Virus record (IMG/VR): IMGVR_UViG_3300037467_001298
Span: 4,174 to 68,173 of that record
Strand: one strand, 5' to 3'
Length of the DNA stretch: 64,000 bases
Origin: a virus
Lineage: Duplodnaviria; Caudoviricetes
A model generated the notes under the pieces. It was not told where the DNA came from, made no database searches, and was given only the letters and a program-made list of their open reading frames with translations. Shown here in pieces: positions 1 to 24,717 of this stretch. Both the position numbers and the translations under genes were made by a program. The number at the start of each line of letters is the position of its first letter. Position 1 is the first letter of the stretch.

Positions 1-158
1 AGAAAATAAAAAGTGGGTTTATTGATAAACTATTGCCTTATTTTCATGTTTCAATATTATGGGATACTGAGGATTTGTTAGATTATAAAGATGCCCCAAC
101 AGATAAAGGTTTGGAAGTATTTAATAAATTATGGAATCAAAAAATTGTAATCACTTGA
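1..158 (+). CDS. 3' end of probable phage DNA primase (partial)
   Basis: Frame from nt 3 reads KIKSGFIDKLLPYFHVSILWDTEDLLDYKDAPTDKGLEVFNKLWNQKIVIT*. This resembles the C-terminus of Bacillus-phage primases, and the position upstream of RecJ matches the SPbeta yorJ-yorK order. Confidence 0.55.
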   Translation, partial: KIKSGFIDKLLPYFHVSILWDTEDLLDYKDAPTDKGLEVFNKLWNQKIVIT

Positions 159-159
159 G

Positions 160-188
160 GTTACAATTTTTTGTTTTTTATGTATAAT
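160..188 (+). promoter_or_regulatory. sigmaA-type promoter
   Basis: GTTACA-N17-TATAAT with extended -10 TG. Confidence 0.65.
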
Positions 189-222
189 AACAATGTATGA
201 AAAATAAAATGGAGGTTATAAT

Positions 223-459
223 ATGAAGCAAATTAAAATTACCTTTTTACAAGGAAAAGGCAATCCTATTGATATTGTCTGTAGTGATAATGAAACATTT
301 TTTATAACTAAATTACTTGATGCAAAAAAAGGTGTATTTACAAATATTGGTTATATTGAAGGTGAAGATGTACAATCTTACACAGTAAATGATTATATTA
401 TGCCAGATGTCGGCCCATCACCTGCTTTAAAAGGAAATGGAGGAAATGAAAATATATGA
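223..459 (+). CDS. hypothetical protein
   Basis: GGAGG RBS, 78 aa ORF, overlaps next gene. Confidence 0.75.
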   Translation: MKQIKITFLQGKGNPIDIVCSDNETFFITKLLDAKKGVFTNIGYIEGEDVQSYTVNDYIMPDVGPSPALKGNGGNENI

Positions 460-665
460 AAACAGTAGAAATTAAAAAAGGAAAAACATTAATAACCTTA
501 GAAGTAGATCTTGAAGAGTTGGGTACGTTTATTTGTGGACTAGGAGCAACTAACAGAGAACAAATTGCTCAAAGTGCAGAGTTTAATAATGTTGAAACTG
601 TTAAGGATAGCTATGACCTATATGAAAAATTGCATGCTATTTATAAAGGAGCGGTAAAAATATGA
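456..665 (+). CDS. hypothetical protein (paralog of 662..886)
   Basis: ATGA overlap; MKTVEIKK...LEELGTFICGLG resembles next ORF. Confidence 0.75.
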   Translation: MKTVEIKKGKTLITLEVDLEELGTFICGLGATNREQIAQSAEFNNVETVKDSYDLYEKLHAIYKGAVKI

Positions 666-886
666 AAACAATAGAAATTATTAGACCAACTGAATCAGAT
701 GTAGTTATTAAATTAACACTTCGTGAATTGGGAACCGTTGTTGCTGCGCTAGGCGAAGCCTCTATAGAAGATTTAAACAAAGGAGCAGAATGGAATAAGA
801 TTAAAACAGTCCTTAATCAAACTGGAGATCCATCATTGAAATTATTTCAACAACTTAGAGATTTATATAAGGAGATGGAACAATGA
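662..886 (+). CDS. hypothetical protein (paralog of 456..665)
   Basis: ATGA overlaps on both sides; MKTIEII...LRELGTVVAALG. Confidence 0.75.
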   Translation: MKTIEIIRPTESDVVIKLTLRELGTVVAALGEASIEDLNKGAEWNKIKTVLNQTGDPSLKLFQQLRDLYKEMEQ

Positions 887-2601
887 AAATAGTTCAAAAA
901 GGAGCCTTTAATGGAAATATTATTAATACAACATTAGAAAACAGAAATATTCCAAACATTGAATTATTTCTTAATCCTGAAGATGCCTTAGAAAGCAATC
1001 CGTTAGAAATTTATAATATTAAAGATGGACATGATTTATTATTGACTCATATGGCACAAAAGAGTTTAATTGTTATTTTAGTTGACTCTGATGCTGATGG
1101 ATTCACTTCAGGTTCTATTATGTTTCAATATCTTGACAGATTGGGTGTTAATGTTGTTTATATAGTTCATGATGGAAAAGCACACGGACTAACAAATAAA
1201 ATCATGGAAGAATTAGAAGATCTACGACCTGATTTATTAATTACTCCTGATTCAACTTCTAATGATGTAGAACAAATTGAAAAACTTTATGAACTTGGAA
1301 TTGATGTTCTTGTAATTGACCATCACCATGTTTCTGAATTTACAGAAAAAGGTGTAGTTATTAATAATCAACTTTGTGAAGTTACTAATCACAGATTTGT
1401 TGGAGCAGGAATGGTTTATAAATTTATTCAAGGACTTGATACAAAATTAGGTTTAAATTATGCAGATGATTATCTTGATTTAGTTGCTATTGGACAAATT
1501 GGAGATGCTTCAGATATTTCAGATCCTGAAATTAGAAAACTTGTTTTCAAAGGAATAAATAATGTTAAAAATAAATTTTTAAAGGTTGCAATTGCAACGA
1601 AATTAGGTTTAGGTGTTAAAGTTGCCCCTAAGGACCTATCGTTTAATGTTATTCCACTTATAAATGCTGTAACTCGAGTTGGTACAGTTGAGGAACGTGA
1701 ATATTTATTTGAAGCATTAAGTGGTATTGATGATGAACGAGAATTTTTTGTTGAAAAGAAAAAGAAAAATCCAACAACTGGCAAGTTTGACAAGGTTACT
1801 TTTAACTATGATATTTATCAGTATGGTTTTGATATTGCTATGAAAGTAAAATCAAGGCAGGATTCCGTTGTTAAGAAAATGGTAGCCCAATTAGAAAAAT
1901 CAGTTGTAGATGATGCTGGAATTATTATTGCTTTTACAGAGGATAATGAAAACCCAGGAGTTACGGGTCTTGTTGCAAATAAATTAATGACAAAGTTTGA
2001 TAAACCTGCATTATTATTAAACACACAAGAAGAAACTTATACAGGTTCAGGTAGAGGTCATGAGAAAACGTTAAAAGATTTTCGTAAATGGTGTGAAGAT
2101 TCAGATCTTGTAGAATTTGCACAAGGGCATGATAACGCTTTTGGTATTAGTATTAGAAAGGATAAATTTGATGCCTTTAAAGATTATTCTAGAACAATCA
2201 AAAAACAAGAGGTTATTTACGAAGTTGATGTCTTATCCGATAGACCTAATAAAGACCAATGTGAACTCGTTGATAGAAATAAGTCCCTGTTTGGCGGAGT
2301 GGTTAGTGAACCTTTTATTGGAATTACTGGTTTAACTGTTCCTAAAAAGTTCATATCTCAAAAAGGTTCAATGTTAACTATTTACTCTTGGGGAGTTTCA
2401 TGTGTAATGTTTAGTGCTCCACAAGATTTAATAGAAAAAATTATTGATAGTGAAGATACTCTTACAATTGATATTGTTGGTTATTATTCAATGAACAATT
2501 GGAATGGCCGTCAAACCCCACAATTAATAATTAAGGATATTGAAATTGTAAATAATAATATTAATGATGAAGAAATAAATGAGGATAATATAATCTTCTA
2601 G
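883..2601 (+). CDS. recJ: RecJ-like ssDNA exonuclease (DHH family)
   Basis: DSDADG, LITPD, IDHHH (DHH), DHHA1 GSGRG and GHDNAFG motifs. Confidence 0.93.
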   Translation: MKIVQKGAFNGNIINTTLENRNIPNIELFLNPEDALESNPLEIYNIKDGHDLLLTHMAQKSLIVILVDSDADGFTSGSIMFQYLDRLGVNVVYIVHDGKAHGLTNKIMEELEDLRPDLLITPDSTSNDVEQIEKLYELGIDVLVIDHHHVSEFTEKGVVINNQLCEVTNHRFVGAGMVYKFIQGLDTKLGLNYADDYLDLVAIGQIGDASDISDPEIRKLVFKGINNVKNKFLKVAIATKLGLGVKVAPKDLSFNVIPLINAVTRVGTVEEREYLFEALSGIDDEREFFVEKKKKNPTTGKFDKVTFNYDIYQYGFDIAMKVKSRQDSVVKKMVAQLEKSVVDDAGIIIAFTEDNENPGVTGLVANKLMTKFDKPALLLNTQEETYTGSGRGHEKTLKDFRKWCEDSDLVEFAQGHDNAFGISIRKDKFDAFKDYSRTIKKQEVIYEVDVLSDRPNKDQCELVDRNKSLFGGVVSEPFIGITGLTVPKKFISQKGSMLTIYSWGVSCVMFSAPQDLIEKIIDSEDTLTIDIVGYYSMNNWNGRQTPQLIIKDIEIVNNNINDEEINEDNIIF

Positions 2602-2612
2602 GAGGAACTATA

Positions 2613-3113
2613 ATGAAAAATGATTTTATAATTCTTATTGGTTCTGATGGAAGTGGTAAATCAACAATAGCCGAGGCATTATCTAATGAACTTGGCTATC
2701 CTGTTGAACACCATGGACCTGTTAAATCATACCAAGAAGGAAAAGATGAATATTTTAAAAACATTCTTGATATTGAGTATTCAGTTATCAAAGATCGTTT
2801 CCATGAAGGTGAAAAAATATATGCTCCAATTTATCGTGGATACGAGGCAGATTATTTTGGTGAACTTGAATATTTATTACAATTAAAATTTAATCCTTTG
2901 CTTGTTTTAATTAGACCACCATTTAAAGTTATTGAACAGAGGTTAGAAGAACGTGGTGAGGATTTTGTAAAACAAGAACATTGGTTTTATTGTTATTTAA
3001 AACTAAATGACATCTATAATCAGTCTAATCTTCCAAAAATAACTATTGATACAAGTGTATATACTGCTGAAGAAAATGTTAAAAAAATAATCAATGCTTT
3101 AGGTTTACATTAA
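2613..3113 (+). CDS. P-loop deoxynucleoside monophosphate kinase (thymidylate-kinase-like)
   Basis: Walker A GSDGSGKST, DRFHEGEKIY (DR motif), lid RLEERGE; lies just upstream of the TS homolog. Confidence 0.8.
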   Translation: MKNDFIILIGSDGSGKSTIAEALSNELGYPVEHHGPVKSYQEGKDEYFKNILDIEYSVIKDRFHEGEKIYAPIYRGYEADYFGELEYLLQLKFNPLLVLIRPPFKVIEQRLEERGEDFVKQEHWFYCYLKLNDIYNQSNLPKITIDTSVYTAEENVKKIINALGLH

Positions 3114-3168
3114 TATTTATTATATATATAATATTTTTGTAATGATAATTTATTTGGAGGTAATAAAA

Positions 3169-3435
3169 ATGAAAGTTATTATGCCCGAGAAAAAACAGTT
3201 CAAATTAAAATTAGGAGATATTCTTCATACAGGTTTTGGTGATATTTACATTGCTTCAAAGTTCACCGATCAAACATTTGCTTGGTTTAATAATAAAGGA
3301 TATTGTGCAAATGGTGTATATAATTCACTTGAGGATTTAGAAAGAGCAAGTCAAAAATATTTTACAGATCCTGAATACACTATTTACAGTTCTGATGACT
3401 ATGATTTACAATTAGTTCCTAAAGGAGTAAAATAA
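3169..3435 (+). CDS. hypothetical protein (dispersed ~90 aa paralog family)
   Basis: GGAGG RBS before ATG 3169; LKLGDIL..G..YI pattern. Confidence 0.75.
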   Translation: MKVIMPEKKQFKLKLGDILHTGFGDIYIASKFTDQTFAWFNNKGYCANGVYNSLEDLERASQKYFTDPEYTIYSSDDYDLQLVPKGVK

Positions 3436-3436
3436 A

Positions 3437-4468
3437 ATGTTTATTATTGAAGGAGAATCATTTGAGGAAGTCTATAAAAAATCAATTATAGAAATTCTTA
3501 AAAATGGTGATGTAGTTGCTCCTCGCGGTTCAGCAACATTTGAATTAGCACCTGCAACTATTGTAATTAAAAACGCTAGAAAATTTTTAACAATGCCAAA
3601 GTTAAGAAAAGGTAATTATACTTTTCAATTAGCAGAAGCATTATGGATGTTACGAGGTTCAAACGACCTTGAAGAAATCGCTCATTATAATAAGGTATGG
3701 CGTAACTTTGAAGATGAAGACGACCCAGGAATTTTAAATGGCGCTTACGGTGAAAGACTTCGTGATTGGGATATGGGTGTAGACCAATTTATTGAGGTTT
3801 ATAATAAATTGAAAAAAGATCCTTATTCACGTCAAGCAGTTGCTATGATTTGGGATCCTGTTAGAGATAATGCCATTCATGAGAATGGGAATTACTCTAA
3901 AGATATCCCTTGTACAAATTACTTCAATTTCCAAATTCGTAATGGTAAACTAAATATGTGGACTGTAATGAGAAGTAATGATTTACACAAAGGGTCTATA
4001 TATGATATTCCAAACTTTATTATTTTCCAACATATTATTGCAGGTTGGTTGGGTGTTGAAGTTGGAAAATATACGCACTCTGCTGCCTCACTTCACATTT
4101 ATGAATCTGATGTAGAAAATTTTATTGATATTTATAATGATAAAGATGATACAGTTGTTTATGATGGTGAAGATTATGGTGACCCAAGAGTTCCACTTTC
4201 TGAATTTAATTTTGTAATGTCTACTATTTCTGTTATTGAATATTCAACAAGACAGGTATTAGATAAAGAAACATTTGATGATTATTTAGAAACTTTATTA
4301 AATGTTATTAGCGATATTAAAAACACTTGGTGGAGATCTGTTGCTGCACAAATTGCTATGTATAATTATAGAAAATTAGGTGCCACTGAAGAAGAATTTA
4401 AGAAATTCTTACCTTTTATTACTAATGAATATAGAAAAAATGTTGAAAAATGGAGGAGTTTAGTATGA
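3437..4468 (+). CDS. thymidylate synthase homolog, predicted dCMP hydroxymethylase-type
   Basis: AEALWML, YGERL, SRQAV, catalytic DIPC, RSNDLHKGSIYD with Asp at the N177-equivalent position, SLHIY. Confidence 0.85.
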   Translation: MFIIEGESFEEVYKKSIIEILKNGDVVAPRGSATFELAPATIVIKNARKFLTMPKLRKGNYTFQLAEALWMLRGSNDLEEIAHYNKVWRNFEDEDDPGILNGAYGERLRDWDMGVDQFIEVYNKLKKDPYSRQAVAMIWDPVRDNAIHENGNYSKDIPCTNYFNFQIRNGKLNMWTVMRSNDLHKGSIYDIPNFIIFQHIIAGWLGVEVGKYTHSAASLHIYESDVENFIDIYNDKDDTVVYDGEDYGDPRVPLSEFNFVMSTISVIEYSTRQVLDKETFDDYLETLLNVISDIKNTWWRSVAAQIAMYNYRKLGATEEEFKKFLPFITNEYRKNVEKWRSLV

Positions 4469-4728
4469 AAATCAGTATAGAACAAATTAGAGGCGAAAAA
4501 CCTAAAACTGAACCTAAACTTGGTCAAATCTATTCTGGTTGCGGTTCTTATTATATTGTATCAAAGGCATATACAAGAAATAATGAAACTCTATATAATC
4601 TAACAAATCTTGAAACTGGTTCACGATGGACAAATGAACTTTCTAAGGATGAATTGGAAGCGGAAATAAATTTCCATAGTTTCAAACTTGTCAATGTAAA
4701 AGAAATAGTAATTAAGGAGGAAATTTAA
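4465..4728 (+). CDS. hypothetical protein (dispersed ~90 aa paralog family)
   Basis: ATGA overlap with TS stop; PKLGQIY..G.YYI...Y.L.NLETG. Confidence 0.75.
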   Translation: MKISIEQIRGEKPKTEPKLGQIYSGCGSYYIVSKAYTRNNETLYNLTNLETGSRWTNELSKDELEAEINFHSFKLVNVKEIVIKEEI

Positions 4729-4731
4729 TTA

Positions 4732-5949
4732 ATGAAGGTACTTGGAGCATTTATTTTTATGGGTTCTGCAACCATTGGCGTAATGAATAATGGTGTAAAG
4801 CCCAACAGAATTTTGGAATTATCAGATGGAATGACACAAGATAATGCTATGCACTTTGTCCATAACTATCCTGAAATTCCTGTTATTGAACCTGCTGTAT
4901 GGGAAAACGATGAATATTTAGAAGAACTTCGTAAAGAGGAATTCGATTTACTGTACGGAAATCCTCCATGTTCGGGATTAAGTTTAGGTGTTCGTGGTGG
5001 GCAATCTCATGAAAAAGGCCCCAACTGTCACCAATATCGCTATATGGAAATTATTAAAAAAGTACAACCTAAAGCATTTATGTATGAGAATGCTCCTACG
5101 TTGATTAGTACAGGAAAACCAATCTTAAATGATTTTATTAAAGGTCTTCCTAATTATAATTTCACTATTATTCGTGAATTTGGTTGCTATCATAATGTTG
5201 CTATGAAGCGTCAAAGAACATTCTTCATTGGATGGCGTAAAGACGTATTTGAAAAAGTTCCTACGCTTCACATGAGTAAAACAGAAAAACCTACAACCGT
5301 TCGTGATATCTTAGGAGATCTTTTCGATGTGCCTGTTGGTCACTCTAATGTATTAAATCACGAGTTAATCCCAGGTCGTCCGTATCAAGACGTAGAATTT
5401 GTTTTTCCTGATGTTCCTTATGTTAAAGGTGGAGAATATACTGTAAACTGGGTAATCTGTAATGAGTATGAAAAGTATGAGCCGCTATTAAAAGAAAAAA
5501 CTAAAAAAGCATTAAAAACTCAATTATTTAAACAAAGAAATGGTTTAGGTTATTGGGATAAATCTTCTCAACGTCCGAATCCTGATAAACAAGCACCATC
5601 AATGACTGGATATGCAAGTTTCATCCATCCTATTCATCACCGTCAATTTACTGTTCGTGAGTACGCTCGTTTAATGGGATATCCCGATACATTTGAAATT
5701 CTTCCGCATAAGGAAGTTGTTCGTCATATGGCTCAAGGAGTACCTGCTCGTTATTTTGAATGGGCATCAGGTGAAGTGCTTGCTGCGTTGCGTGGACAAA
5801 GACATTCTCATCAACAGTTTGAAGATACTCGAGTTATATTCCAACATCATACAAAAGAATTGATGACTGAATTCACAACTGAAGAGTTCTTAAATACATT
5901 AAAAATTGCAGAAGTAAAAAATGAAAAACAACAGAAACTAACGGTTTAA
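4732..5949 (+). CDS. DNA (cytosine-C5) methyltransferase homolog with degenerate motifs I and X
   Basis: Motif IV GNPPCSGLS, VI YENAP, VIII MKRQRTFFIG, IX RQFTVREYARLMGYPD. Motif I reads FIFMGS instead of FxGxG; motif X reads MAQGVP instead of IGNAV. Confidence 0.85.
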   Translation: MKVLGAFIFMGSATIGVMNNGVKPNRILELSDGMTQDNAMHFVHNYPEIPVIEPAVWENDEYLEELRKEEFDLLYGNPPCSGLSLGVRGGQSHEKGPNCHQYRYMEIIKKVQPKAFMYENAPTLISTGKPILNDFIKGLPNYNFTIIREFGCYHNVAMKRQRTFFIGWRKDVFEKVPTLHMSKTEKPTTVRDILGDLFDVPVGHSNVLNHELIPGRPYQDVEFVFPDVPYVKGGEYTVNWVICNEYEKYEPLLKEKTKKALKTQLFKQRNGLGYWDKSSQRPNPDKQAPSMTGYASFIHPIHHRQFTVREYARLMGYPDTFEILPHKEVVRHMAQGVPARYFEWASGEVLAALRGQRHSHQQFEDTRVIFQHHTKELMTEFTTEEFLNTLKIAEVKNEKQQKLTV

Positions 5950-5982
5950 TCCGTTAGTTCTGTTACATAGGAGAATGATAAA

Positions 5983-6387
5983 ATGGAAGAATACATTTAT
6001 AAAGGTGATTTAGTTAATGATTATATTGTTTTACAAGCGTCACCTAAACATTGGCATTTAGTAAATAAAAAAGATTTTAATAGATGGTCAGATTGTGGAA
6101 TTGAATATAGAATTGACAAAGTTTCCAATGAATCATATATAACTCGTGAAGATATTGAAAGAATGTACCCATTTGAATTTAAGGGTTTTAAACTTGTGCG
6201 TAAAAATGATTGGCAAAACAATAAACAAACAACTAAAGCAGAATGTAACCATAATGTAAGTCAAATAGAAATTGAACGTATTATTGCTCATTCTATTTGT
6301 AATACAAGAGATGGGGAACATCAAGGTCTTGTGATTGCAAAAATTGCAAAAAGTATTTTATCATTTTTATCAGAGAAAGGAATATAA
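5983..6387 (+). CDS. hypothetical protein
   Basis: GGAG RBS, 134 aa ORF. Confidence 0.75.
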   Translation: MEEYIYKGDLVNDYIVLQASPKHWHLVNKKDFNRWSDCGIEYRIDKVSNESYITREDIERMYPFEFKGFKLVRKNDWQNNKQTTKAECNHNVSQIEIERIIAHSICNTRDGEHQGLVIAKIAKSILSFLSEKGI

Positions 6388-6390
6388 TAA

Positions 6391-6657
6391 ATGAGTAATA
6401 TTAAGGTTTTAAAATTTGGTGCTACTTGGTGTGGACCGTGTAAGATGTTAGATCCTATTATGTACGAATTAAAAGATGAATACCCTAATATAGAATTTCA
6501 GTTTGTAAACGTTGATGAAGAACCTGAAATAACAGGACAATTTGGTGTTATGGGTATACCTCGAGTTATGGTTTATAAAAATGATGAAAAAGTTGAAGAT
6601 TTTACAGGATTTAAACCTAAAACGGTAATTGAACAAATGATAAATTTTCATATATAA
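6391..6657 (+). CDS. trxA: thioredoxin
   Basis: FGATWCGPCK active site; GVMGIP cis-Pro loop. Confidence 0.95.
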   Translation: MSNIKVLKFGATWCGPCKMLDPIMYELKDEYPNIEFQFVNVDEEPEITGQFGVMGIPRVMVYKNDEKVEDFTGFKPKTVIEQMINFHI

Positions 6658-6666
6658 TAATGAAAC

Positions 6667-6698
6667 AAAACGATATAACTTATGTTATGTCGTTTTTT
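6667..6698 (+). terminator. intrinsic terminator
   Basis: AAAACGATATAAC-ttat-GTTATGTCGTTTTTT hairpin with U-tract. Confidence 0.7.
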
Positions 6699-6723
6699 AT
6701 TTGACAAAATTTTCATTATTATA

Positions 6724-6752
6724 TATACAAATTTATCAAAAATTGTTATAAT
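6724..6752 (+). promoter_or_regulatory. sigmaA-type promoter
   Basis: TATACA-N17-TATAAT, extended TG. Confidence 0.55.
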
Positions 6753-6793
6753 TTAATTGTGGAATTTTTTATTGAATAAGGGAGGTTTTATTA

Positions 6794-6964
6794 ATGACAG
6801 TTATGACAGTTAAAGGCAAGGCTGAAGAGATTTATAAGTTAATCCAACATGCTACTATTGATGAGGTAACTGACTTTTGGCGAGAGCTTGACACAATTGA
6901 CTACCATTTTTCCCTTGAAGTATGTAGAGAATTAATCAGAATGATACAGAATCAGGAAAGATAA
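6794..6964 (+). CDS. small hypothetical protein (56 aa, below ORF-track cutoff)
   Basis: GGGAGG RBS; MTVMTVKGKAEEIYKLIQHATIDEVTDFWRELD... Confidence 0.7.
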   Translation: MTVMTVKGKAEEIYKLIQHATIDEVTDFWRELDTIDYHFSLEVCRELIRMIQNQER

Positions 6965-7027
6965 TTCTGCAGAAGGGGTTGCTCAACGCTTCTCCTTTAT
7001 TTAATGAAAATATTCTAGAAATTTTTG

Positions 7028-7056
7028 TTTACATTTAATTGCTATTGGTATATAAT
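7028..7056 (+). promoter_or_regulatory. sigmaA-type promoter of topoisomerase B subunit
   Basis: TTTACA-N17-TATAAT. Confidence 0.75.
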
Positions 7057-7105
7057 GAAAATATGTTCAATTAAATGAAATTTGTTTTTGATGGAGGAGA
7101 TATTA

Positions 7106-9016
7106 GTGAGTGAAAAACGCGACCAAATAAAGGCACTTACAACGAGAGAACAGTGCCGTGATAAACTTCCAACATGGTTTGGTTCTCGTGAAAATTATCT
7201 TCATGGCTTCCGTGAAGTTTTAGGGAATGCGGTTGATGAAGTTATTAATAACTATAAAAAAGGTATTATAACAATTAAACTTGAAGATGATATGCAAACA
7301 ATTTCAGTATCAGATACAGGAAGGGGAATTCCAATTGACGGTACCACTGACGGTAAGCCTAACTATATTTTACTTTTTGAAACTTTATTTGCTGGAACAA
7401 ACTACGATAACAACGAAAATGGAAAGATTACGGTGGGCACTAATGGAGTCGGTACAACTGTGCTTAATCATACTTCTTGCCTCTTTGAAGTAACATCCTT
7501 CCGAAACGGTAAAAAATCAAAATTAACTTATATAGACGGTGGAAGCAACCAAGGTCTGACTACTGAGACGTGCAAGGACACTTTACACGGTTCTATCTTC
7601 AAATTCAGACTAGATCCTGAAGTTTATACATCTGTTATATATCAGAAGGAAGAAATTGTTGCTATTATAAAACACGTTGCTGCAACTTCAAATCAAATTA
7701 CCTTTAATTTTGATTTTAAAGGAGAACGGGAGACATTTAATTACAATTCACTGTCAGATTACTTCCTAGAAGTAGCCACTGGCCTCACATCTAAGCCGAT
7801 TGTAGGACCTGAAGTTGAATATGACCGTGAAGATGAATTAAATAAAATCGGTATTTTATTTGCTACTGCAAGTGACCCAATTCAAGAATCATTCCTTAAC
7901 TTTAACTGGTTACCTAATAAAGGCTCAATTCATACAGGAATTATTAACGGTGTTAGGTCATTCATTAATAAGGAAGCGCAAGAACAGAAACTAATTGATA
8001 AAAAATCAAATATAACACCCACTGATGTAGAGGATTCAGTAAGTTATGTTTGTTCCTTCCTTTCAACTAATGTTGAATATGCGAACCAAACAAAACTGTC
8101 AACTGATAAAAAATTATACCGTTCATTAGTTAATGAATATGTACAAAGTTTGTTGGAAGCATTCAAGGCTGAACAACCTAAGGAATTTGATAAATTCCTA
8201 AAACATATTGTTCAAGTTAATAAATTCAATAATCGTAATACTGCTGCTAAACAAGCACTAAAAAAGAAATTAAATGAAAGAGCTGATACTTTAACAAACC
8301 GTGTTGAAAAACTTGTTGAGTGTGATAAACATGGTCCTAATGCTGAATTATTTATTGCCGAAGGTGATTCTGCTTTAGGTTCAATCGTTCAGGCCCGTGA
8401 CAGTTTATATCAGGCCGCATATCCATTGAGAGGTAAAATCCTTAACTGTTTAAAAGCCGATTATTTAAAAATATTTGACAATAAGGTTGTTATGGATTTA
8501 ATTAAAGTTATTGGCACAGGAGTTATCGCTGATAAAAAACATAAGGATATTGAAACTTTTGAAATTACTCGTTCTAATTATGGAAAGTATATTATATCAA
8601 CTGATGCCGATGCAGATGGTCAACAAATCTGTTGCTTATTAATAACATTCTTCTATCGTTTAATGAGACCTTTACTTGAACAAGGTATGGTTTATGTTGC
8701 AAAGACACCATTATATGAAGTAAAACTTGAGGATGATTCAATGATTTATTACTTCAGTGAAAAGGAAAAAGATGAAAAACTTCCAAAAGTAAAAGGCAAA
8801 TATGTTATTGCTCGTTGTAAAGGATTAGGTGAACTTGAAGCCGAAACAATGGCATACACTGCAATGGATAAGGATACGCGTGTTCTTGAACGTGTAACTG
8901 TAAATAATGCTGAAGCAATGGTTGCTGCTGTTGAAAAATTCATGGGTGCAGATGTACATGATAGGAAAGAATATATTGAAGAAAATCTTTATAAATATAT
9001 TGCGGCGGTGGATTAA
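7106..9016 (+). CDS. gyrB: type IIA topoisomerase subunit B (GyrB/ParE family)
   Basis: GHKL ATPase EVLGNAVDE, DTGRGIP, GTNGVG; TOPRIM AEGDSA, PLRGKILN, STDADADG; RCKGLGE. GTG start at 7106 follows GGAGGAG. Confidence 0.93.
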   Translation: MSEKRDQIKALTTREQCRDKLPTWFGSRENYLHGFREVLGNAVDEVINNYKKGIITIKLEDDMQTISVSDTGRGIPIDGTTDGKPNYILLFETLFAGTNYDNNENGKITVGTNGVGTTVLNHTSCLFEVTSFRNGKKSKLTYIDGGSNQGLTTETCKDTLHGSIFKFRLDPEVYTSVIYQKEEIVAIIKHVAATSNQITFNFDFKGERETFNYNSLSDYFLEVATGLTSKPIVGPEVEYDREDELNKIGILFATASDPIQESFLNFNWLPNKGSIHTGIINGVRSFINKEAQEQKLIDKKSNITPTDVEDSVSYVCSFLSTNVEYANQTKLSTDKKLYRSLVNEYVQSLLEAFKAEQPKEFDKFLKHIVQVNKFNNRNTAAKQALKKKLNERADTLTNRVEKLVECDKHGPNAELFIAEGDSALGSIVQARDSLYQAAYPLRGKILNCLKADYLKIFDNKVVMDLIKVIGTGVIADKKHKDIETFEITRSNYGKYIISTDADADGQQICCLLITFFYRLMRPLLEQGMVYVAKTPLYEVKLEDDSMIYYFSEKEKDEKLPKVKGKYVIARCKGLGELEAETMAYTAMDKDTRVLERVTVNNAEAMVAAVEKFMGADVHDRKEYIEENLYKYIAAVD

Positions 9017-9109
9017 ATGTTAAAAGAAATTTTATTAGGAACAGTTTCGGGAGTTATAACATTATTTATTATTTTTTGTGGCCTAATGTATTTTATCTTT
9101 GGTTTATAA
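9017..9109 (+). CDS. 30 aa single-TM micro-protein
   Basis: MLKEILLGTVSGVITLFIIFCGLMYFIFGL, directly abutting the gyrB stop. Confidence 0.5.
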   Translation: MLKEILLGTVSGVITLFIIFCGLMYFIFGL

Positions 9110-9116
9110 TTTCCAT

Positions 9117-9145
9117 TTTACAAATCAAATTTAAAATGTTATAAT
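9117..9145 (+). promoter_or_regulatory. sigmaA-type promoter
   Basis: TTTACA-N17-TATAAT, extended TG. Confidence 0.75.
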
Positions 9146-9178
9146 AAATTATACGATTTAATTGGAGGCGATTTTAGT

Positions 9179-9310
9179 ATGGCAAGACATGGAAGTTATA
9201 ATTGTCCAAATTGTGATTCAACTGAGGTTTTTGTTACATTTGAAGGTAAGTTAGTGTGTAATGACTGTATGTGGATAAGTCCTGAACCTGTTGTTGAGGA
9301 GAAAAAGTAA
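9179..9310 (+). CDS. 43 aa zinc-ribbon protein
   Basis: GGAGG RBS; CPNC...CNDC. Confidence 0.7.
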   Translation: MARHGSYNCPNCDSTEVFVTFEGKLVCNDCMWISPEPVVEEKK

Positions 9311-9423
9311 TGGAACAGTGGAAAGGTGGACCAAAAAGGTTAACAAAAACGGGTGAACATATTTTAGGAATTATAATCGGCTGTATAATTGGTATTGCAG
9401 CTGGTTTTCTTGGAGGAATGTAA
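9310..9423 (+). CDS. 37 aa membrane micro-protein
   Basis: TAATG coupling; ILGIIIGCIIGIAAGFLGG hydrophobic segment; contains the RBS for gyrA. Confidence 0.55.
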   Translation: MEQWKGGPKRLTKTGEHILGIIIGCIIGIAAGFLGGM

Positions 9424-9424
9424 A

Positions 9425-11428: not shown

Positions 11429-11454
11429 TGCCATTCTTTTTTTTATTTACATTA

Positions 11455-11483
11455 TTTACAATGTATAAAAAATATGTTACAAT
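11455..11483 (+). promoter_or_regulatory. sigmaA-type promoter
   Basis: TTTACA-N17-TACAAT, extended TG. Confidence 0.7.
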
Positions 11484-11523
11484 TATTTTGTGTTAAACAA
11501 ATAGAAATGGAAGGTGTTAAACA

Positions 11524-12213
11524 ATGACAAATCAAGTTGAAAAGTTTGAAGCACGCGAATCAAAGAAAAAGGTTGATGAACAAGTAATAAAAACTGAGGA
11601 ATTTAAAAATAGTACGCTTGAAAAACAAGGTCAAAAGGTTGCTAATAAATACGGTTTATCAACTGAAGATATCTTCATGATAATCGCACGAGATGGCATG
11701 GAGATGTGGACAAAGATGTGGAACAACTCAATGGAAAATGTTATTCGTGAGACAATTAGAAATGAAATTAAAACAATTGTTAAAGATGTTGTTCAGGATG
11801 TTGTTCAAGATGAATTATCAGCCGCTGCCAGAGGTTTTATGAGAGGTATTGCTATGGCACAAATGGAAAGCATTAATAAACCTAGCGTCGAATGGACAAA
11901 AGAGGAACAAGCTGAATTTGAACTTGAGCCATTTGAATCTGTTGCAAGTACTGCTATAGTTGAACCTGAGGTTGAATTAAAATCTGAACATAAACCAAGG
12001 TATAAAGAATTTAACGGTACATATAAGTTCCGTGATAAACAAAGACTTGATGAAATGATTAGTGAAATGCAATTAGAAGGTAAAGATCCATCTGTTGCAA
12101 AAAATTTCAAAGAAAAAGGTGCTTCCTATAATACAATGTACCAAAACTTCATGAAGGATAACCCAGGTCGTGGAGTATGGAAGCAATATGTTGAACATAT
12201 TTTAAATAATTAA
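11524..12213 (+). CDS. hypothetical helical protein
   Basis: 229 aa ORF with its own promoter and downstream hairpin. Confidence 0.8.
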   Translation: MTNQVEKFEARESKKKVDEQVIKTEEFKNSTLEKQGQKVANKYGLSTEDIFMIIARDGMEMWTKMWNNSMENVIRETIRNEIKTIVKDVVQDVVQDELSAAARGFMRGIAMAQMESINKPSVEWTKEEQAEFELEPFESVASTAIVEPEVELKSEHKPRYKEFNGTYKFRDKQRLDEMISEMQLEGKDPSVAKNFKEKGASYNTMYQNFMKDNPGRGVWKQYVEHILNN

Positions 12214-12226
12214 TAATGTAAATGAT

Positions 12227-12247
12227 GGTGTGGAAATATTCCACACC
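12227..12247 (+). terminator. hairpin, possible terminator
   Basis: GGTGTGGAA-ATA-TTCCACACC; weak U-tract. Confidence 0.45.
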
Positions 12248-12253
12248 TTCTGG

Positions 12254-12282
12254 TTTACACCAGAATTTTTATTGTATATAAT
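12254..12282 (+). promoter_or_regulatory. sigmaA-type promoter of dnaE
   Basis: TTTACA-N17-TATAAT. Confidence 0.75.
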
Positions 12283-12324
12283 TATATTGATTTAAAAAAA
12301 TGTTTCCAAAGGAGGATTCTAAGA

Positions 12325-16203: not shown

Positions 16204-16208
16204 GGACG

Positions 16209-16244
16209 TTCTGGTGATGTTTTTTCGTCACCAGAATATGTTTT
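16209..16244 (+). terminator. intrinsic terminator after dnaE
   Basis: TTCTGGTGA...TCACCAGAA stem followed by TATGTTTT. Confidence 0.6.
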
Positions 16245-16413
16245 AATATAAATATACATTGATACAAAAAACATTAAAAAAGTATGGTTCCAGGGATCCC
16301 ATTTATTACAGATTTTATAACGAACGGTAAACAACTATATAGAAAATCTGTAATTTCTATCAATATATTGTAATTTCTCAGTAAAAAAATCAACATATTG
16401 ATAAAAAAAATGT

Positions 16414-16431
16414 ATAAAATTGAAATTTTAT
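16414..16431. promoter_or_regulatory. palindromic motif ATAAAAT-N4-ATTTTAT (copy 1)
   Basis: Directly upstream of the -35 at 16433. Confidence 0.5.
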
Positions 16432-16432
16432 G

Positions 16433-16752: not shown

Positions 16753-16763
16753 GAGGAATTAGT

Positions 16764-17156
16764 ATGATAAATACGTTGCAAATGGTACTTGATAAACAAG
16801 CGGAGTTTCAAAAGAAGTTTGGATTTGAAGGATTAGAGCAGACCGATATTGAAACGGTCTCTTCTTTAATCCATACTCATTCACATTTTACAATGGAAGA
16901 ACTTTTTGAAATGGAAAGAGAACTTCCATATCATAAACCCTGGAAAGATTATTCAGGGTTAACTAAATACGAAGTTATAGAAAATTTTCAAAAAGGAAGA
17001 GAAGAATGGATTGATGCTTTTATCTTTCTAATGAATGTTGGGTTATTCTTAGGTTTCGATTCAAAACTAATTGAGCAAATGTATTTAGAAAAACTTGGAA
17101 TAAATCATAAAAGACAAGAAGATCCAAAACTAGGATATATTACGGAGGTAAATTAA
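16764..17156 (+). CDS. all-alpha NTP pyrophosphatase (dimeric dUTPase / T4 gp56 dCTPase-like, MazG superfamily)
   Basis: LDKQAEFQ, MEELFEM, HKPWK, REEWIDAFIFLMNV, KLGINHKRQ. Confidence 0.8.
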   Translation: MINTLQMVLDKQAEFQKKFGFEGLEQTDIETVSSLIHTHSHFTMEELFEMERELPYHKPWKDYSGLTKYEVIENFQKGREEWIDAFIFLMNVGLFLGFDSKLIEQMYLEKLGINHKRQEDPKLGYITEVN

Positions 17157-19813: not shown

Positions 19814-20546
19814 AGGTATTATACTCGCAGGTGGTAGAGGATCTCGCCTATCACCTATAACAGATGTATATAATAAATATTTATGTCCTGTTTATGATAA
19901 ACTCATGATAGAATATTCTATCCTATCATTAAAAGATGCAGGAATAACTGATATAGCAATTATTCTTGGTACAAAGTCTGCTGGTGAAACAATGGACTAT
20001 CTCAAATCAGGTAAAAAATATGGTGTTAAATTTACATATTTTTATCAGGATGAGCCGCTGGGAGTTCCGAATGCTCTGTATCAGGCTAAAGATTGGGCTG
20101 GACTAACTAACGTAGTTGTATTGTGCGCTGATAATATTATTTATGATAATTTAATGCCATTCTTAGAAATGTATAAAGGCGGAGGTTTTATTACAACTAA
20201 ATTCTTTAATGATAAAGAGGAACTAAAGAGATTCGCTGTGCTAGAGTTTGATGAAGATTTAAGTATTAATAAAATTGTAGAAAAACCTGAAAACCCTAAA
20301 TCCTCCCTAGCATTTTGTGGGATACAAATATACGATTTACAATTATGGTCAATTATTAAAGGACTGGAACCTTCTAGACGCGGTGAATATGAAATTGTGG
20401 ATGTATTAAATGAATATATTAATCGTAAAAAGTTTAGTTATGGAACATTAACCAAACAATGGTTCGACTGTGGCAATAAGGATGCTTTGTTTGAAGCACA
20501 ACAATATGCTTTCTTTAATTCGATTGAGGAGGCCCTAAACAAATGA
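19800..20546 (+). CDS. sugar-1-phosphate nucleotidyltransferase (RmlA/SpsI-like)
   Basis: GIILAGGRGSRLSPIT..NK, QDEPLG, ADNI, VEKP, PSRRGEYEIVD, WFDCG; TTG start. Confidence 0.92.
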   Translation: MKNFKGIILAGGRGSRLSPITDVYNKYLCPVYDKLMIEYSILSLKDAGITDIAIILGTKSAGETMDYLKSGKKYGVKFTYFYQDEPLGVPNALYQAKDWAGLTNVVVLCADNIIYDNLMPFLEMYKGGGFITTKFFNDKEELKRFAVLEFDEDLSINKIVEKPENPKSSLAFCGIQIYDLQLWSIIKGLEPSRRGEYEIVDVLNEYINRKKFSYGTLTKQWFDCGNKDALFEAQQYAFFNSIEEALNK

Positions 20547-21994
20547 CCTATCAAATTATTAATTCCCATAAAGACAACCCTAATAAAAAGAATATTATGT
20601 TATTCTTGCTCGAGAGAAATCTCGGCAAGAAAACTAATTTCTTGTCATATTCATATATACTTAATACTGTTAAAATTTTACAAAAAGATTTCAATGTTTT
20701 CCTCGTTGCCCGTTCATCAAGTTCAAGAGGCGCCTGGATAGAGGTAGCATTACAAACACCTATTTTGAAAGACTGTATACTTATTAATCTTGATGCTTCA
20801 GGAAGGTTTATGAGAGTTGAAACAGGCGAACAGGAGTTATATGATGATGATAAAGCCGCATACAATTATACTTATAAGTATATGGATACTTTGTTTACTA
20901 ACCTCATTCATGGTGAGCCATGGATATTTAATAATCTCGTTGGCACTATTTCTTCTGCTCTTTTTCTTGTATATGAAAGGAATCACGAAATTATACCATA
21001 CGATGAAAGAACTGAAAAACTCTCAGCAGGAGCCATGGAAACAGCCCGTAAACGACTTACAGGGGAACGTCAATTCTTCTCGTTCCGAATGATTAGTCAG
21101 AGATGTATGTATCCTTTATACTTCCTCACAAGACTTATGAGGGACTATCCAAATTTATGGCATTACTCATTCTGTCACGATACTAGCTCAATATGGTACC
21201 CATGGTCTGCTAAGGTAAATCCTCTTACAAAAAATGTTAAATGTTTTTACTTTGTAAATGATGATAGAGGACCTATGAGGGATTTTAAAGAATTCCCATC
21301 TGCGCAGATTCAAGATGCCTTTGGTAAAAAACAATTGACAAAGGATGAGTTAAATGATATTCTCAATAATAAAAAACATGATTTTATCTTTGGCGGAACT
21401 TTTCCTTATGATGTTAGTTACCGCTTGGCGGATTGGGTACGTTATTTTAATGACCTTAATTGTGATGCTACTATTCGTACTCAAACTGATGGTACTTCCA
21501 CTATTACTTGTACAGAGATTAAGGATCCACTCGAAACAAAGAAATTCAAAGGTAAAAAGATAAAAGATGAAAAGGCGTTAGATGTTATTAGAAGTATTTC
21601 TGTCAATAAGAATGTTAAACCTACTGTATCTCAACAAGAGTATCACGAGGAACAAAAGGATTATATGTTTACAATTATTTTAAAATGCTTTTATGGTAAG
21701 TATGATTCTTTAAACTTTAGGATTTATTCTTCATTAGCAAATGGCGTTATTCCTTTATTAGCTAATGACTATGATGTTGATTGCCTTCAAATTCCGTTAT
21801 TATTTAAACAACTATTAACGGTTAGAGATAATATTGATATTGAAGAAAAGATTGAATATTATAAAAATAACCCTGAAAAATATAAGGAACTATTTTGGGC
21901 ACTCTATAATCACTATGTAAAGCCTGAACACTATCAAAATGAGTGGTATGAAAAAGTGTTCAAAGAAAATTATTTTAATGAATTATATAAATAA
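20543..21994 (+). CDS. GT-B glycosyltransferase, T4 beta-glucosyltransferase-like (GT1)
   Basis: KKHDFIFGGTF resembles T4 BGT KTLDVIYGGSF; LNFRIYSSLANGVIPLLANDYD resembles ITLRVWETMASDAVMLIDEEFD; final helices IEEKIEYYKNNPEKYKEL. By-eye alignment. Confidence 0.65.
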   Translation: MTYQIINSHKDNPNKKNIMLFLLERNLGKKTNFLSYSYILNTVKILQKDFNVFLVARSSSSRGAWIEVALQTPILKDCILINLDASGRFMRVETGEQELYDDDKAAYNYTYKYMDTLFTNLIHGEPWIFNNLVGTISSALFLVYERNHEIIPYDERTEKLSAGAMETARKRLTGERQFFSFRMISQRCMYPLYFLTRLMRDYPNLWHYSFCHDTSSIWYPWSAKVNPLTKNVKCFYFVNDDRGPMRDFKEFPSAQIQDAFGKKQLTKDELNDILNNKKHDFIFGGTFPYDVSYRLADWVRYFNDLNCDATIRTQTDGTSTITCTEIKDPLETKKFKGKKIKDEKALDVIRSISVNKNVKPTVSQQEYHEEQKDYMFTIILKCFYGKYDSLNFRIYSSLANGVIPLLANDYDVDCLQIPLLFKQLLTVRDNIDIEEKIEYYKNNPEKYKELFWALYNHYVKPEHYQNEWYEKVFKENYFNELYK

Positions 21995-22784: not shown

Positions 22785-23513
22785 ATGGAGGTGTTTAATT
22801 TGGAATATGGGTTTATTTATATTACAACTAACAATATTAATAATAAAAAATATATTGGCAAATGTAAATATAAACCAGGTAGTAAAAATTACTTAGGTTC
22901 AGGCTTACATTTGAAACGTGCTATTAATAAATATGGAAAAGAAAACTTTTCAAGAGATATTATTGATACTGCTAAAAATGAAAATGAATTAAATAAAAAA
23001 GAAAAGTATTGGATTGATTTTTATAATGCTATACATTCTGATAATTTTTATAATATAGCAGAAGGTGGGCATGGTGGTAATACATTAGCTGGGAAAACAG
23101 AAGAGGAATTAAAACAATTTGGCGAAATTATAAGTAATGCAAATAAAGGAAGAAAATGGTCGGATGAAAGCAAACTTAATAGAAGTAAAGAAAGGAAAGG
23201 CAAATTTACAGGTAAAGACCATCATATGTTTGGTAAAAAACTTTCTGACGAACAAAAAAAGAAAATTAGTAATAAAGTAAAAGGTGGTAAGAATCCATCA
23301 GCAAAGAAAGTTTATATTTATAAAGGTAGTGAATTAATAAAAGTTTGTAATACTTTTGATGAGACAGTTCATTGGTTTTATAAACAATATCGTGCTTATT
23401 CTCTTACTACAAGTAATAAATTAATAAGAAATTTAAGAAAAAGTGGTGGTACTTGTATTAAAACAGGATTAAGTTTTAGTGATAAAAAATTAGGAGGTAT
23501 TAACAATGAGTAG
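22785..23513 (+). mobile_element. free-standing GIY-YIG homing endonuclease with NUMOD3-like repeats
   Basis: GFIY...KKYIG, YLGSG, ELNKKEKYWI, YNIAEGG, HHMFGKKLSDEQKKKIS. Confidence 0.88.
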
Positions 23514-24717
23514 GGTTGGCTTCGGGAAAATGGGCCGTTCAATATATTTTGATAGAAAAAAATGGAAAGAAAATGCGGGAAATAATGAAGCACCAATATT
23601 AATAAGTGCCATTGCAAAACTTCAACCTAATACTACTTACTATTTAATTGGTAAATCTGATTTCAGTAGGGTGTCAGATGATATTAGGAAAGAATGGTTT
23701 CCACATAATAATGTAATTGATTGTTGGAAAGATTTCAATCCTAAGCAACACGACCCAACAACATGGATTTGGGAACAGTTAAAAAATAAAAATTTAGATT
23801 ATTGTATAATTCACGGTGGGATGGCTTCTCTAAGTATACCAAATAAAATATATTGCTTAGATAGAAAAACAAAAAAACCTGACTACTCAAAACTAAGACA
23901 ACCTCTTGCATCACTTGTTAATTATTGCTCACCAATAACATATTTTTTAAATGAGTCAAAAATAGATTGGTTAACAATTACATCAGATGGAAGGTATATG
24001 CCTCTACCTGCTCGCGATTTAATTAATCCTGAGAAAATTAGTTTGGGTGTTAGAGAAGGTGTTGTAGAAATCGAACGAATGAAATCCTATGAGGACCAAG
24101 AAACAATGGTTAAGCATAAAGTAGATTTACGTTACGCTGCTGCCGAATTTCAATATTTACTTGATCCTAAATTCAGCACATTTAGGTATAACGAGGAAAA
24201 AACTCAAAAAGTTGGTTTATTCTTTCATCAATATGATAATAAAAAACGTGTAGCTGCAATTCAAGATATTATTGAGCAATTTGGTGAAGATGAAATTGCA
24301 GTATATGGAAAATGGGAATTAGCAGGTCATGATAAAAGGTATAAAGGTCCTGTGAACTTTGAAGAATTACAAGATATTTTACCTTCTGTTAAATATACTT
24401 TCTGCTATCCTATAATTCCTAATGACTTTTCAGGTAAATGGGTTGAAAGTGTTCGAGCTGGTATAATTCCGTTCTTCCATTCAACTTATGGTGATAGGAA
24501 AATAATGTCAAGATATGATAAATCATTTGAGTGGCTTTATGTTGATAATGGACAAGAAATGAAACAAAAGATAGAATATCTTGAACAAAATCCTACAGCG
24601 TATTATAGGATGAAAAATTTACTTATATCAACAGTTAGTCGTTTCCCTAAAAATGGCGCCTCATTTGTTAATGCAATAAACAAAGCAGTAAAAGACATGA
24701 AAGGTATGAGAAAATAA
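23506..24717 (+). CDS. GT-B glycosyltransferase, T4 beta-glucosyltransferase-like (GT2)
   Basis: N-terminal RVGFGKMG...NNEAPILISAI resembles BGT KIAIINMG...SSETIYLFKVI; YKGPVNFEEL, FSGKWVESVRAGIIPFF, LYVDNGQEMKQKIEYLEQNP resemble the BGT C-terminus. By-eye alignment. Confidence 0.65.
   Translation: MSRVGFGKMGRSIYFDRKKWKENAGNNEAPILISAIAKLQPNTTYYLIGKSDFSRVSDDIRKEWFPHNNVIDCWKDFNPKQHDPTTWIWEQLKNKNLDYCIIHGGMASLSIPNKIYCLDRKTKKPDYSKLRQPLASLVNYCSPITYFLNESKIDWLTITSDGRYMPLPARDLINPEKISLGVREGVVEIERMKSYEDQETMVKHKVDLRYAAAEFQYLLDPKFSTFRYNEEKTQKVGLFFHQYDNKKRVAAIQDIIEQFGEDEIAVYGKWELAGHDKRYKGPVNFEELQDILPSVKYTFCYPIIPNDFSGKWVESVRAGIIPFFHSTYGDRKIMSRYDKSFEWLYVDNGQEMKQKIEYLEQNPTAYYRMKNLLISTVSRFPKNGASFVNAINKAVKDMKGMRK

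Follow-up and report, generated by a model that had tools for sequence, protein, structure and literature searches.

The 64,000-nucleotide stretch of viral DNA analyzed here (hereafter the window) carries, at positions 3437..4468 of its plus strand, an open reading frame (ORF) that we read, with a probability of roughly 75%, as a 5-hydroxymethyl-deoxycytidine monophosphate (5hm-dCMP) synthase, in other words a deoxycytidine monophosphate (dCMP) hydroxymethylase. Judged from its sequence, the enzyme is most likely a homodimeric, folate-dependent pyrimidine hydroxymethylase that has the fold of thymidylate synthase (TS) and takes dCMP as its substrate. The window corresponds to bases 4174-68173 of a 68,173-bp virus contig from IMG/VR (IMGVR_UViG_3300037467_001298), the completeness of which is estimated at ~77%. 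Its G+C content is ~30%, and a sequencing-run search recovered the same DNA in 11 runs, possibly including that of the original sample; all are soil or rhizosphere metagenomes available as contigs, a form of data that carries no information on base modification. The ORF, called the TS homologue below, and its diagnostic codons are located as follows.

3437..4468, plus strand, ATG start: TS homologue, 343 amino acids (aa), predicted folate-dependent dCMP hydroxymethylase; TS core at about residues 1-234 and MilA-like helical C-terminal domain at about residues 254-336

3902..3904, plus strand: codon of Asp156, 3 residues before the catalytic Cys (E. coli Leu143, T4 Asp145), candidate water activator

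3911..3913, plus strand: codon of Cys159, catalytic nucleophile (E. coli Cys146, T4 Cys148)

3980..3982, plus strand: codon of Asp182 (E. coli Asp169), retained

4004..4006, plus strand: codon of Asp190, determinant of cytosine over uracil by alignment

The TS homologue belongs to the TS/pyrimidine hydroxymethylase superfamily by its profile match, its fold, and its catalytic Cys and Glu. It matches PF00303 with an E-value of 1.7e-29 and 103.3 bits (cut-off 24.3), and four PHROG families match it, each named “thymidylate synthase.” A first-pass annotation, made from the DNA letters alone, had anticipated that automatic pipelines would settle on the name ThyA, and the PHROG names bear this out, as do JGI and NCBI, which call close homologues “thymidylate synthase.” The same annotation held that the enzyme is specific for dCMP rather than a TS, and our results agree with it: the NCBIfam TS equivalog models all score far under their cut-offs (108.3 versus 174.55 bits for TIGR03283, 77.5 versus 327 for NF002497, and 60 versus 108.35 for TIGR03284), the best match is MilA, and the protein carries Asp190 and lies in a clade with Asp at this position (see below). 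The sub-cut-off NCBIfam scores, together with Asp190 and Asp156, argue against a canonical ThyA identity, which we reject.

Among PDB sequences, phmmer placed MilA, the cytidine monophosphate (CMP) 5-hydroxymethylase of Streptomyces rimofaciens (5B6D, 5JNH), at the top (4.5e-26), with the best ThyA at ~1e-17. The AlphaFold model of the TS homologue, for which a 65-sequence alignment served as input, has a predicted local distance difference test (pLDDT) score of 96.6 and a predicted template modeling (pTM) score of 0.94. When this model was searched with Foldseek, MilA chains came first (E ~1e-22, 332-347 columns, query TM-score (TMq) 0.74-0.78), whereas ThyA chains spanned only ~230-280 columns (TMq 0.55-0.60); there were 396 PDB matches at E <= 0.001, and among the matches listed all were MilA or TS chains. 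The ~100-aa C-terminal extension noticed in the first-pass annotation is real, occupies about residues 235-343, and is common to phage G gp319, SPO1 gp29, and MilA. Since MilA chains align over the full length, this extension corresponds to the helical C-terminal domain that has been described for MilA (PMC5175136).

The residues that line the active site point to cytosine as the base and to a hydroxymethyl group as the product. The strings KDIPCTN (with Cys159), LAEALW (with Glu67), and MRSNDLHKGSIYD (residues 178-190) are present in the ORF as they had been quoted, and the 2 reference strings given for comparison also proved right: E. coli ThyA reads QRSCDVFLGLPFN (QRSCDVFLG-LPFN; translated from NC_000913), and T4 gp42 reads MRSNDVVFGFRND (MRSNDVVFG-FRND; from NC_000866). 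The register of Asp190 was determined in a phmmer alignment to MilA, in small MAFFT sets with references, and in a 123-sequence MAFFT alignment; all three align it with E. coli Asn177, T4 Asp179, and MilA Asp186. Asp thus stands at the site that selects between deoxyuridine monophosphate (dUMP) and dCMP, as originally proposed, and the TS homologue has neither Asn nor Gln at position 177 in any of the alignments, whether by HMMER, MAFFT, or structure. The catalytic Cys and the equivalent of Glu58 are likewise intact in the alignments, as Cys159 and Glu67. Cys159 is found in 123/123 aligned sequences and is invariant in the reference MAFFT, the 65-sequence, and the PaMx74-containing alignments.

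In an alignment ruled by E. coli ThyA, and in E. coli numbering, the TS homologue has R21, E58, Y94, R126, D143, C146, T147, R166, S167, N168, D169, D177, H207, and Y209, and it is identical to T4 gp42 at positions 143, 146, 147, 166-169, 177, 207, and 209. As an internal control, RB69 gp48 shows E143, Q168, and N169 in this alignment; its D169N signature is therefore reproduced, which validates the register. Each of the diagnostic positions has an established reading. The N177D exchange gives preference for dCMP over dUMP (PMC13326640; PMC8670742), and the D179N mutation of the T4 enzyme strongly cuts dCMP binding (PMC6400193). The exchange of Leu143 for Asp or Glu marks hydroxymethyl products (PMC13326640); in T4 this residue is Asp145 of the D-x-x-C motif, which activates water for hydroxymethylation and whose mutation to Asn inactivates the enzyme (PMC6400193). 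The TS homologue has this motif as Asp156-Ile-Pro-Cys159, and its Asp190 and Asp156 replace the Asn177 and Leu143 of canonical ThyA. The D169N exchange marks flavin-dependent 5-hydroxy-dCMP synthases (PMC13326640), and the retained Asp182 therefore sets the TS homologue apart from that type. Finally, Ala176 and Lys133 give MilA its preference for ribose, while Ser and Arg give preference for deoxyribose (PMC5175136); the TS homologue has the deoxyribose-type pair, Ser180 and Arg132 (E. coli S167 and R126; MilA Ala176/Lys133'). In all, it carries 5 of the 6 sequence-level features of a dCMP hydroxymethylase of the T4 gp42 type. The first-pass annotation had left the choice between a hydroxymethylase, a methylase, and a hydroxylase of dCMP, which Asp156 and Asp182 narrow to the hydroxymethylase.

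These residues are conserved well beyond the window. A search of 5.8 billion proteins returned 379 homologues at E <= 1e-10, 56 of them with at least 51% identity, all metagenomic and on contigs of up to ~100 kb, and an exhaustive HMMER search over 1.84 billion representatives gave 209 matches at E <= 1e-30. None of the 56 homologues with at least 51% identity lacks Asp190, which also occurs in 116 of the 123 aligned sequences, and the 65-sequence alignment shows little or no variation at Asp156 and Asp190. The complete D143/D169/D177/S167/R126 pattern occurs in 208/263 homologues, with Asn177 instead in 46/263. The phylogeny against gp42, SPO1 gp29, and ThyA that had been suggested at the outset was computed, and it places the TS homologue among sequences with Asp, apart from SPO1 gp29 and ThyA. 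In a FastTree tree of 164 rows, it shares a 95-row clade (support 98; 94 Asp/1 Asn) with phage G gp319, T4 gp42, and homologues from Micromonospora, whereas SPO1 gp29 falls into another clade, of 56 rows (support 97; 49 Asn/7 Asp). In an IQ-TREE tree of 72 rows, the TS homologue belongs to a 36-row, all-Asp clade with a support of 91 in the Shimodaira-Hasegawa-like approximate likelihood ratio test (SH-aLRT), and E. coli ThyA and PaMx74 ThyA stand together outside a split with an SH-aLRT of 99. The Asp/Asn state changes 7 times on the 164-row tree, compared with a mean of 43.8 in shuffled data (0/500 shuffles as low); considering this and the presence of Asp in 56/56 close homologues, we conclude that Asp190 is not there by chance. 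Seven sequences with Asp177 are nested in the SPO1-type Asn clade (P0158, P0168, P0184, P0204, P0205, P0214, and P0217), and a single Asn sequence, P0245, is nested in the Asp clade of the 164-row tree, which points to several switches of the specificity residue in the history of the family.

The TS homologue sits in the arm of the window that is devoted to replication and nucleotide metabolism, among the following genes.

883-2601: RecJ-like exonuclease

2613..3113, plus strand: P-loop nucleoside monophosphate (NMP) kinase, separated by one small ORF from the TS homologue that follows it, candidate 5hm-dCMP kinase

4732-5949, plus strand: C5-cytosine methyltransferase-like protein, lying two genes past the TS homologue

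7082-11428: gyrase B and A

12325-16203: DnaE polymerase, a single 1292-aa ORF

16764..17156, plus strand: all-alpha nucleoside triphosphate (NTP) pyrophosphohydrolase, candidate dCTPase

26191-26709: trimeric dUTPase

27499-28116: bona fide dTMP kinase (TIGR00041, 87.8 bits versus a cut-off of 83.25)

For the NMP kinase, the Pfam matches (AAA_18, dNK, and Thymidylate_kin) are weak, and phrog_761 matches at 1.8e-18. The all-alpha pyrophosphatase matches phrog_18650 and phrog_173, PF08761 (dUTPase_2) with an E-value of 0.0012, and, in a local BLASTP comparison, the C-terminus of the T4 dCTPase gp56 (E 6e-4), which weakly supports its role as a candidate dCTPase. The order RecJ - kinase - TS homologue is kept in 2 relatives. 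In the first (L005; ena:ERZ27229653:k119_219262; 72% identity) the whole order RecJ - kinase - TS - methyltransferase - gyrase - DnaE is found; its DnaE is split into ORFs of 688 and 580 aa around a 251-aa ORF. In the second (L006; ena:ERZ1645016:scaffold_12, 10001-21038; 54% identity) the genes that come after the TS homologue encode a split NrdD, NrdG, FolD (methylene-tetrahydrofolate dehydrogenase/cyclohydrolase), gyrase, and ThyX, a flavin-dependent thymidylate synthase. The presence of ThyX and FolD there implies that thymidylate is made by another enzyme and that a supply of methylene-tetrahydrofolate is encoded beside the TS homologue. The methyltransferase-like gene is kept in place in the 72%-identical relative and is absent from the 54%-identical one; within the protein of the window, the Pfam match begins at residue 64 and leaves the N-terminal region of the S-adenosylmethionine-binding motif I unmatched, and the NCBIfam dcm model gives 56 bits against a cut-off of 100.65.

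Further along the contig lie genes that could supply and transfer a sugar.

18217-19251, plus strand: kinase-like protein (weak APH match, E 0.046)

19208-19813, plus strand: haloacid dehalogenase (HAD) enzyme of the beta-phosphoglucomutase family (PF00702/PF13419)

19800-20546, plus strand: RmlA-like glucose-1-phosphate nucleotidyltransferase (PF00483, 2.7e-45)

20543..21994, plus strand: GT1, GT-B glycosyltransferase of 483 aa, unannotated, candidate glycosyltransferase for 5-hydroxymethylcytosine (5hmC) in DNA

23506..24717, plus strand: GT2, possible and weakly supported second glycosyltransferase, 403 aa

The first three ORFs (18217-20546) overlap and resemble an operon for a nucleoside diphosphate (NDP) sugar, probably of the NDP-glucose type; the family assignments are supported, and TIGR02009, TIGR01208, and TIGR01207 all score under their cut-offs. 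For GT1, the structural model (pLDDT 89.7) has as its best Foldseek matches the T4 beta-glucosyltransferase (BGT; 1qkj/1j39, E 1.4e-6) and the T4 alpha-glucosyltransferase (1ya6), and its language-model features score 0.96 to clusters carrying PF09198; its match to PF13524 has an E-value of 0.009. Direct BLASTP comparison of GT1 and GT2 with T4 BGT was not significant (E 0.16 and 0.42), and an hhalign comparison between T4 BGT and the GT1 family reached a probability of only 8% (E 0.004). The call for GT1 is based on predicted structure and language-model features, which support a BGT-like glycosyltransferase. GT2 matches PF13524 with an E-value of 0.005, under the cut-off, and its language-model features match, with a score of 0.95, a cluster that has PF13524 in 19% of its members.

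The link between a TS homologue and a GT-B enzyme in viral contigs has already been reported in the literature, and it recurs here. The contig k119_219262 carries both a TS homologue and a GT1 homologue, the latter with an all-alpha pyrophosphatase, a nucleotidyltransferase, and a dUTPase on its flanks, and in ten more cases the longest contigs of a TS homologue and a GT1 homologue match in length. The nucleotidyltransferase of k119_219262 is longer (541 aa) and is placed after GT1. Among cultured phages, a tblastn search of 50,697 phage records with GT1 found nothing at E <= 1e-3, and megablast of positions 1-20000 of the window against the same records gave no match. Two genes resembling GIY-YIG/NUMOD3 homing endonucleases (22785-23513 and 25115-25810, plus strand) lie amid the candidate DNA-modification genes, and between GT1 and GT2 a 224-aa protein (22065-22739, plus strand) has weak matches to HipA-like and protein-kinase-like families (E 0.0015-0.08) and to phrog_3162.

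The host is most likely a spore-forming member of the Bacillaceae, based on 3 observations: the contig encodes an alpha/beta-type small acid-soluble spore protein (34972-35325, plus strand; 117 aa; PF00269, 2.3e-19), one close TS homologue comes from a bin labeled Pseudoneobacillus, and the nearest polymerase of a cultured phage is that of Geobacillus phage GR1 (55% identity).

Taken together, these genes suggest a pathway by which the phage probably swaps the cytosine in its DNA for a sugar-decorated modified base. By analogy with T4 gp42 (PMC6400193), Cys159 would attack C6 of dCMP, and Asp190 would hydrogen-bond to and protonate N3/N4 of cytosine, so that cytosine is chosen over uracil. Glu67 would activate 5,10-methylene-tetrahydrofolate (THF), leading to a methylene bridge at C5; after elimination of THF, water activated by Asp156 would add to the exocyclic methylene. 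No hydride transfer would take place, and the products would be 5-hydroxymethyl-dCMP and THF, not dihydrofolate. The kinase at 2613-3113 and a host NDP kinase could then convert the product to 5hm-dCTP, while the all-alpha pyrophosphatase at 16764-17156 would deplete dCTP, so that the DnaE-type polymerase of the phage incorporates 5hmC. In the last step GT1 (20543-21994), and perhaps GT2 (23506-24717), would glycosylate 5hmC in the DNA, as it would then be found in the virion, with an NDP-hexose from the 18217-20546 operon. A more specific picture has, in our estimate, somewhat less than an even chance of being right: that ~100-kb soil phages of Bacillaceae install 5hmC before replication and decorate it with a sugar from their own operon, through a BGT-like family without a homologue in cultured phages, and that this is the first pre-replicative glycosyl-5hmC system to be described for phages of Gram-positive hosts, with a donor that is possibly not glucose or is linked to deoxythymidine diphosphate (dTDP). 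In that picture, the C5-methyltransferase-like protein might have a role beyond plain methylation.

Other chemistries are known in this fold and have to be weighed against the hydroxymethylation of dCMP. It is unlikely, for instance, that the enzyme acts on a ribonucleotide (CMP, as MilA and BcmA do) or modifies cytosine nucleotides at C5 by a chemistry not yet described, even though MilA is its best match in both sequence and structure, C-terminal domain included, bacterial MilA-like homologues from Micromonospora fall into the same broad Asp clade, and the Ser94 of the T4 signature is missing. The MilA ribose pair Ala176/Lys133' is replaced by Ser180/Arg132, as in deoxyribose-specific enzymes, and the gene lies in the replication and nucleotide arm of a phage, beside RecJ, an NMP kinase, gyrase, and DnaE. 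Quite unlikely, in turn, is a dCMP methyltransferase (5-methyl-dCMP synthase) like those of Xanthomonas phage Xp12 and Pseudomonas phage PaMx74, with which the phage DNA would carry 5-methylcytosine (5mC) instead of 5hmC. Asp177 is common to this class as well, passages of PMC8670742 cite N177D/N229D mutants of true TS enzymes that become dCMP methylases, and the nearby C5-methyltransferase-like gene gives the phage some link to cytosine C5 chemistry. As the comparator for the class we used PaMx74 alone, in place of the Xp12 enzyme; PaMx74 is said to carry 5mC throughout (bioRxiv 10.1101/2024.12.05.627091). Its ThyA (L011 40496-41392, minus strand) has Asp177, a ThyA-like C-terminal tail, and dihydrofolate reductase (DHFR) and deaminase genes as neighbors, whereas the TS homologue has the MilA-like domain, and no DHFR was found on its ~77% complete contig. 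Position 143 is Asn in PaMx74 ThyA and Leu in E. coli, against Asp in the TS homologue, T4 gp42, SPO1 gp29, and MilA; the rule that a hydrophobic residue at 143 means methylation is therefore not strict, a non-acidic residue seemingly being enough. The non-acidic 143, the ThyA-like C-terminus, and the grouping with E. coli ThyA outside the clade of the TS homologue (SH-aLRT 99) are thus all features that the TS homologue lacks, and the presence of genes for glycosyltransferases and for an NDP-sugar calls for a hydroxyl group on the base as acceptor. The Stenotrophomonas phage Bhz59 was also considered as a comparator of the 5mC type, and was dropped as it belongs to a different group, the Rabinowitzvirinae.

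A dUMP hydroxymethylase like SPO1 gp29, or an enzyme of dual specificity, would modify thymine positions instead (5-hydroxymethyluracil and its derivatives). SPO1 gp29 is among the closest relatives from cultured phages, with 35-37% identity, the same C-terminal extension, and Asp143, and the seven Asp sequences inside the Asn clade of the 164-row tree indicate repeated changes of the specificity residue. We nevertheless consider this very unlikely, given that both marks of the dUMP enzymes, Asn177 and membership in the Asn clade, are absent: Asp occupies position 177 in the TS homologue and in 56/56 close homologues, the TS homologue lies in a nearly pure Asp clade and not in that of SPO1, and the residue is decisive, as T4 D179N strongly lowers dCMP binding (PMC6400193). 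The phage has also kept a dedicated dTMP kinase, which argues that dTTP is still made. Least probable of all, and in our view barely credible, is a flavin-dependent 5-hydroxy-dCMP synthase like RB69 gp48 and DLP3 gp80, which would lead to ether-linked glycosyl-5-hydroxycytosine. Asp177, an acidic residue at 143, and NDP-sugar and glycosyltransferase genes are shared with RB69, but the D169N exchange is absent, Asp182 standing where RB69 gp48 has Asn in the same alignment, and residue 168 is Asn and not Gln, compared with Gln-Asn at these two positions in RB69 gp48. In addition, FolD beside the gene in the 54%-identical relative points to folate chemistry.

Several observations weigh against our assignment of the TS homologue as a dCMP hydroxymethylase. 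The Ser/Thr-x-Tyr feature, in T4 Ser94-Asn-Tyr96, of which Ser94 and Tyr96 coordinate the proton-abstracting water (PMC6400193), is replaced by Gly102-Ala-Tyr104. At the T4 Ser94 site MilA has Thr, and SPO1 gp29 also lacks Ser or Thr (Ala-Pro-Tyr). SPO1 gp29 is a proven hydroxymethylase, with dUMP as its substrate, and its lack of a Ser94 equivalent thus weakens the signature more than it weakens the assignment. Prediction of products from residues is also fallible, 5 of 7 predicted 5-methyl-dCMP synthases having given the predicted product in one study (bioRxiv 10.1101/2024.12.05.627091), and 5-hydroxylase chemistry in the TS fold was recognized only recently (PMC13326640). If every cytosine were 5hmC, the methyltransferase-like protein at 4732-5949 would be left without a substrate. 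Neither ThyX nor dCMP deaminase nor DHFR was found when the contig of the window was searched for them, which is weak evidence, since the contig is ~77% complete. Finally, T4 gp42 and RB69 gp48 are on very long branches in both trees, making their exact placement in the Asp clade unsure.

Residues 143, 169, and 177 are already in established use for predicting which substrate such an enzyme takes and which product it makes (PMC8670742; PMC13326640; bioRxiv 10.1101/2024.12.05.627091), and one group has already screened IMG/VR for Asp at the N177 position (bioRxiv 10.1101/2024.12.05.627091). With the residue reading being routine, our finding extends a known principle and reveals no new one; its novelty lies in the host lineage and in the uncharacterized glycosyltransferase family. 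No report of a dCMP-hydroxymethylase pathway in phages of Bacillota or other Gram-positive hosts was found in the literature searched, the coverage of which was incomplete. To our knowledge, the 5hmC-substituted phages described so far infect Gram-negative hosts. The gene, its ~56 close homologues, and phage G gp319 are publicly labeled “thymidylate synthase” despite the signature of a dCMP hydroxymethylase, and once this label is corrected, an entire group of soil phages is predicted to have a different DNA chemistry. If our prediction is true, genomes with glycosyl-5hmC in phages that infect spore-formers would be relevant to the evasion of restriction and of CRISPR (clustered regularly interspaced short palindromic repeats) in Bacillus-type hosts, and could provide new DNA glycosyltransferases and 5hm-dCMP synthases as laboratory enzymes.

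Comparison with characterized systems shows where the TS homologue stands among them. With T4 gp42 (1B5E; ternary complex in PMC6400193) it shares the TS fold, the Cys, the Glu58 equivalent, the Asp of D-x-x-C, R-S-N-D, Asp177, the His/Tyr ribose binders, and the same broad Asp clade, and the genomic context is similar in that BGT-like glycosyltransferases accompany a dNMP kinase and a gp56-related all-alpha NTP pyrophosphatase. In contrast, the identity is only ~24%, gp42 lacks the ~100-aa helical C-terminal domain and has Ser94 where the TS homologue has Gly, the likely host is a spore-forming member of the Bacillota and not of the Enterobacterales, and the replicase is of the DnaE type and not of family B. 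With MilA the TS homologue shares the full-length architecture and Asp at both 143 and 177, whereas the ribose pair differs (Ala176/Lys133' in MilA, Ser180/Arg132 here) and MilA serves the biosynthesis of an antibiotic, not phage DNA synthesis. SPO1 gp29 has the same Asp143 and extended C-terminal architecture at 35-37% identity, and differs in Asn177, in its separate, mostly Asn clade, and in its substrate, dUMP. RB69 gp48 and DLP3 gp80 (PMC13326640) have in common with the TS homologue the TS fold, Asp177, an acidic 143, and the link to NDP-sugar and glycosyltransferase genes, but use flavin and O2 and have D169N, whereas the TS homologue keeps Asp169.

The closest homologue from a cultured phage is gp319 of Bacillus phage G, with 42-45% identity over the full length, Asp143/Asp169/Asp177, and the C-terminal domain, although phage G, unlike the phage studied here, is a 498-kb jumbo phage. 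No report of the function of gp319 or of DNA modification in phage G was found in the literature searched. According to the annotations of phage G (NC_023719: 227448-240485), gp313 is an alpha-glucosyltransferase, gp315 a thymidylate kinase, and gp317 a putative dCMP deaminase, all of them encoded near gp319. Considering the signature of gp319 together with these neighbors, phage G may also make glucosylated 5hmC.

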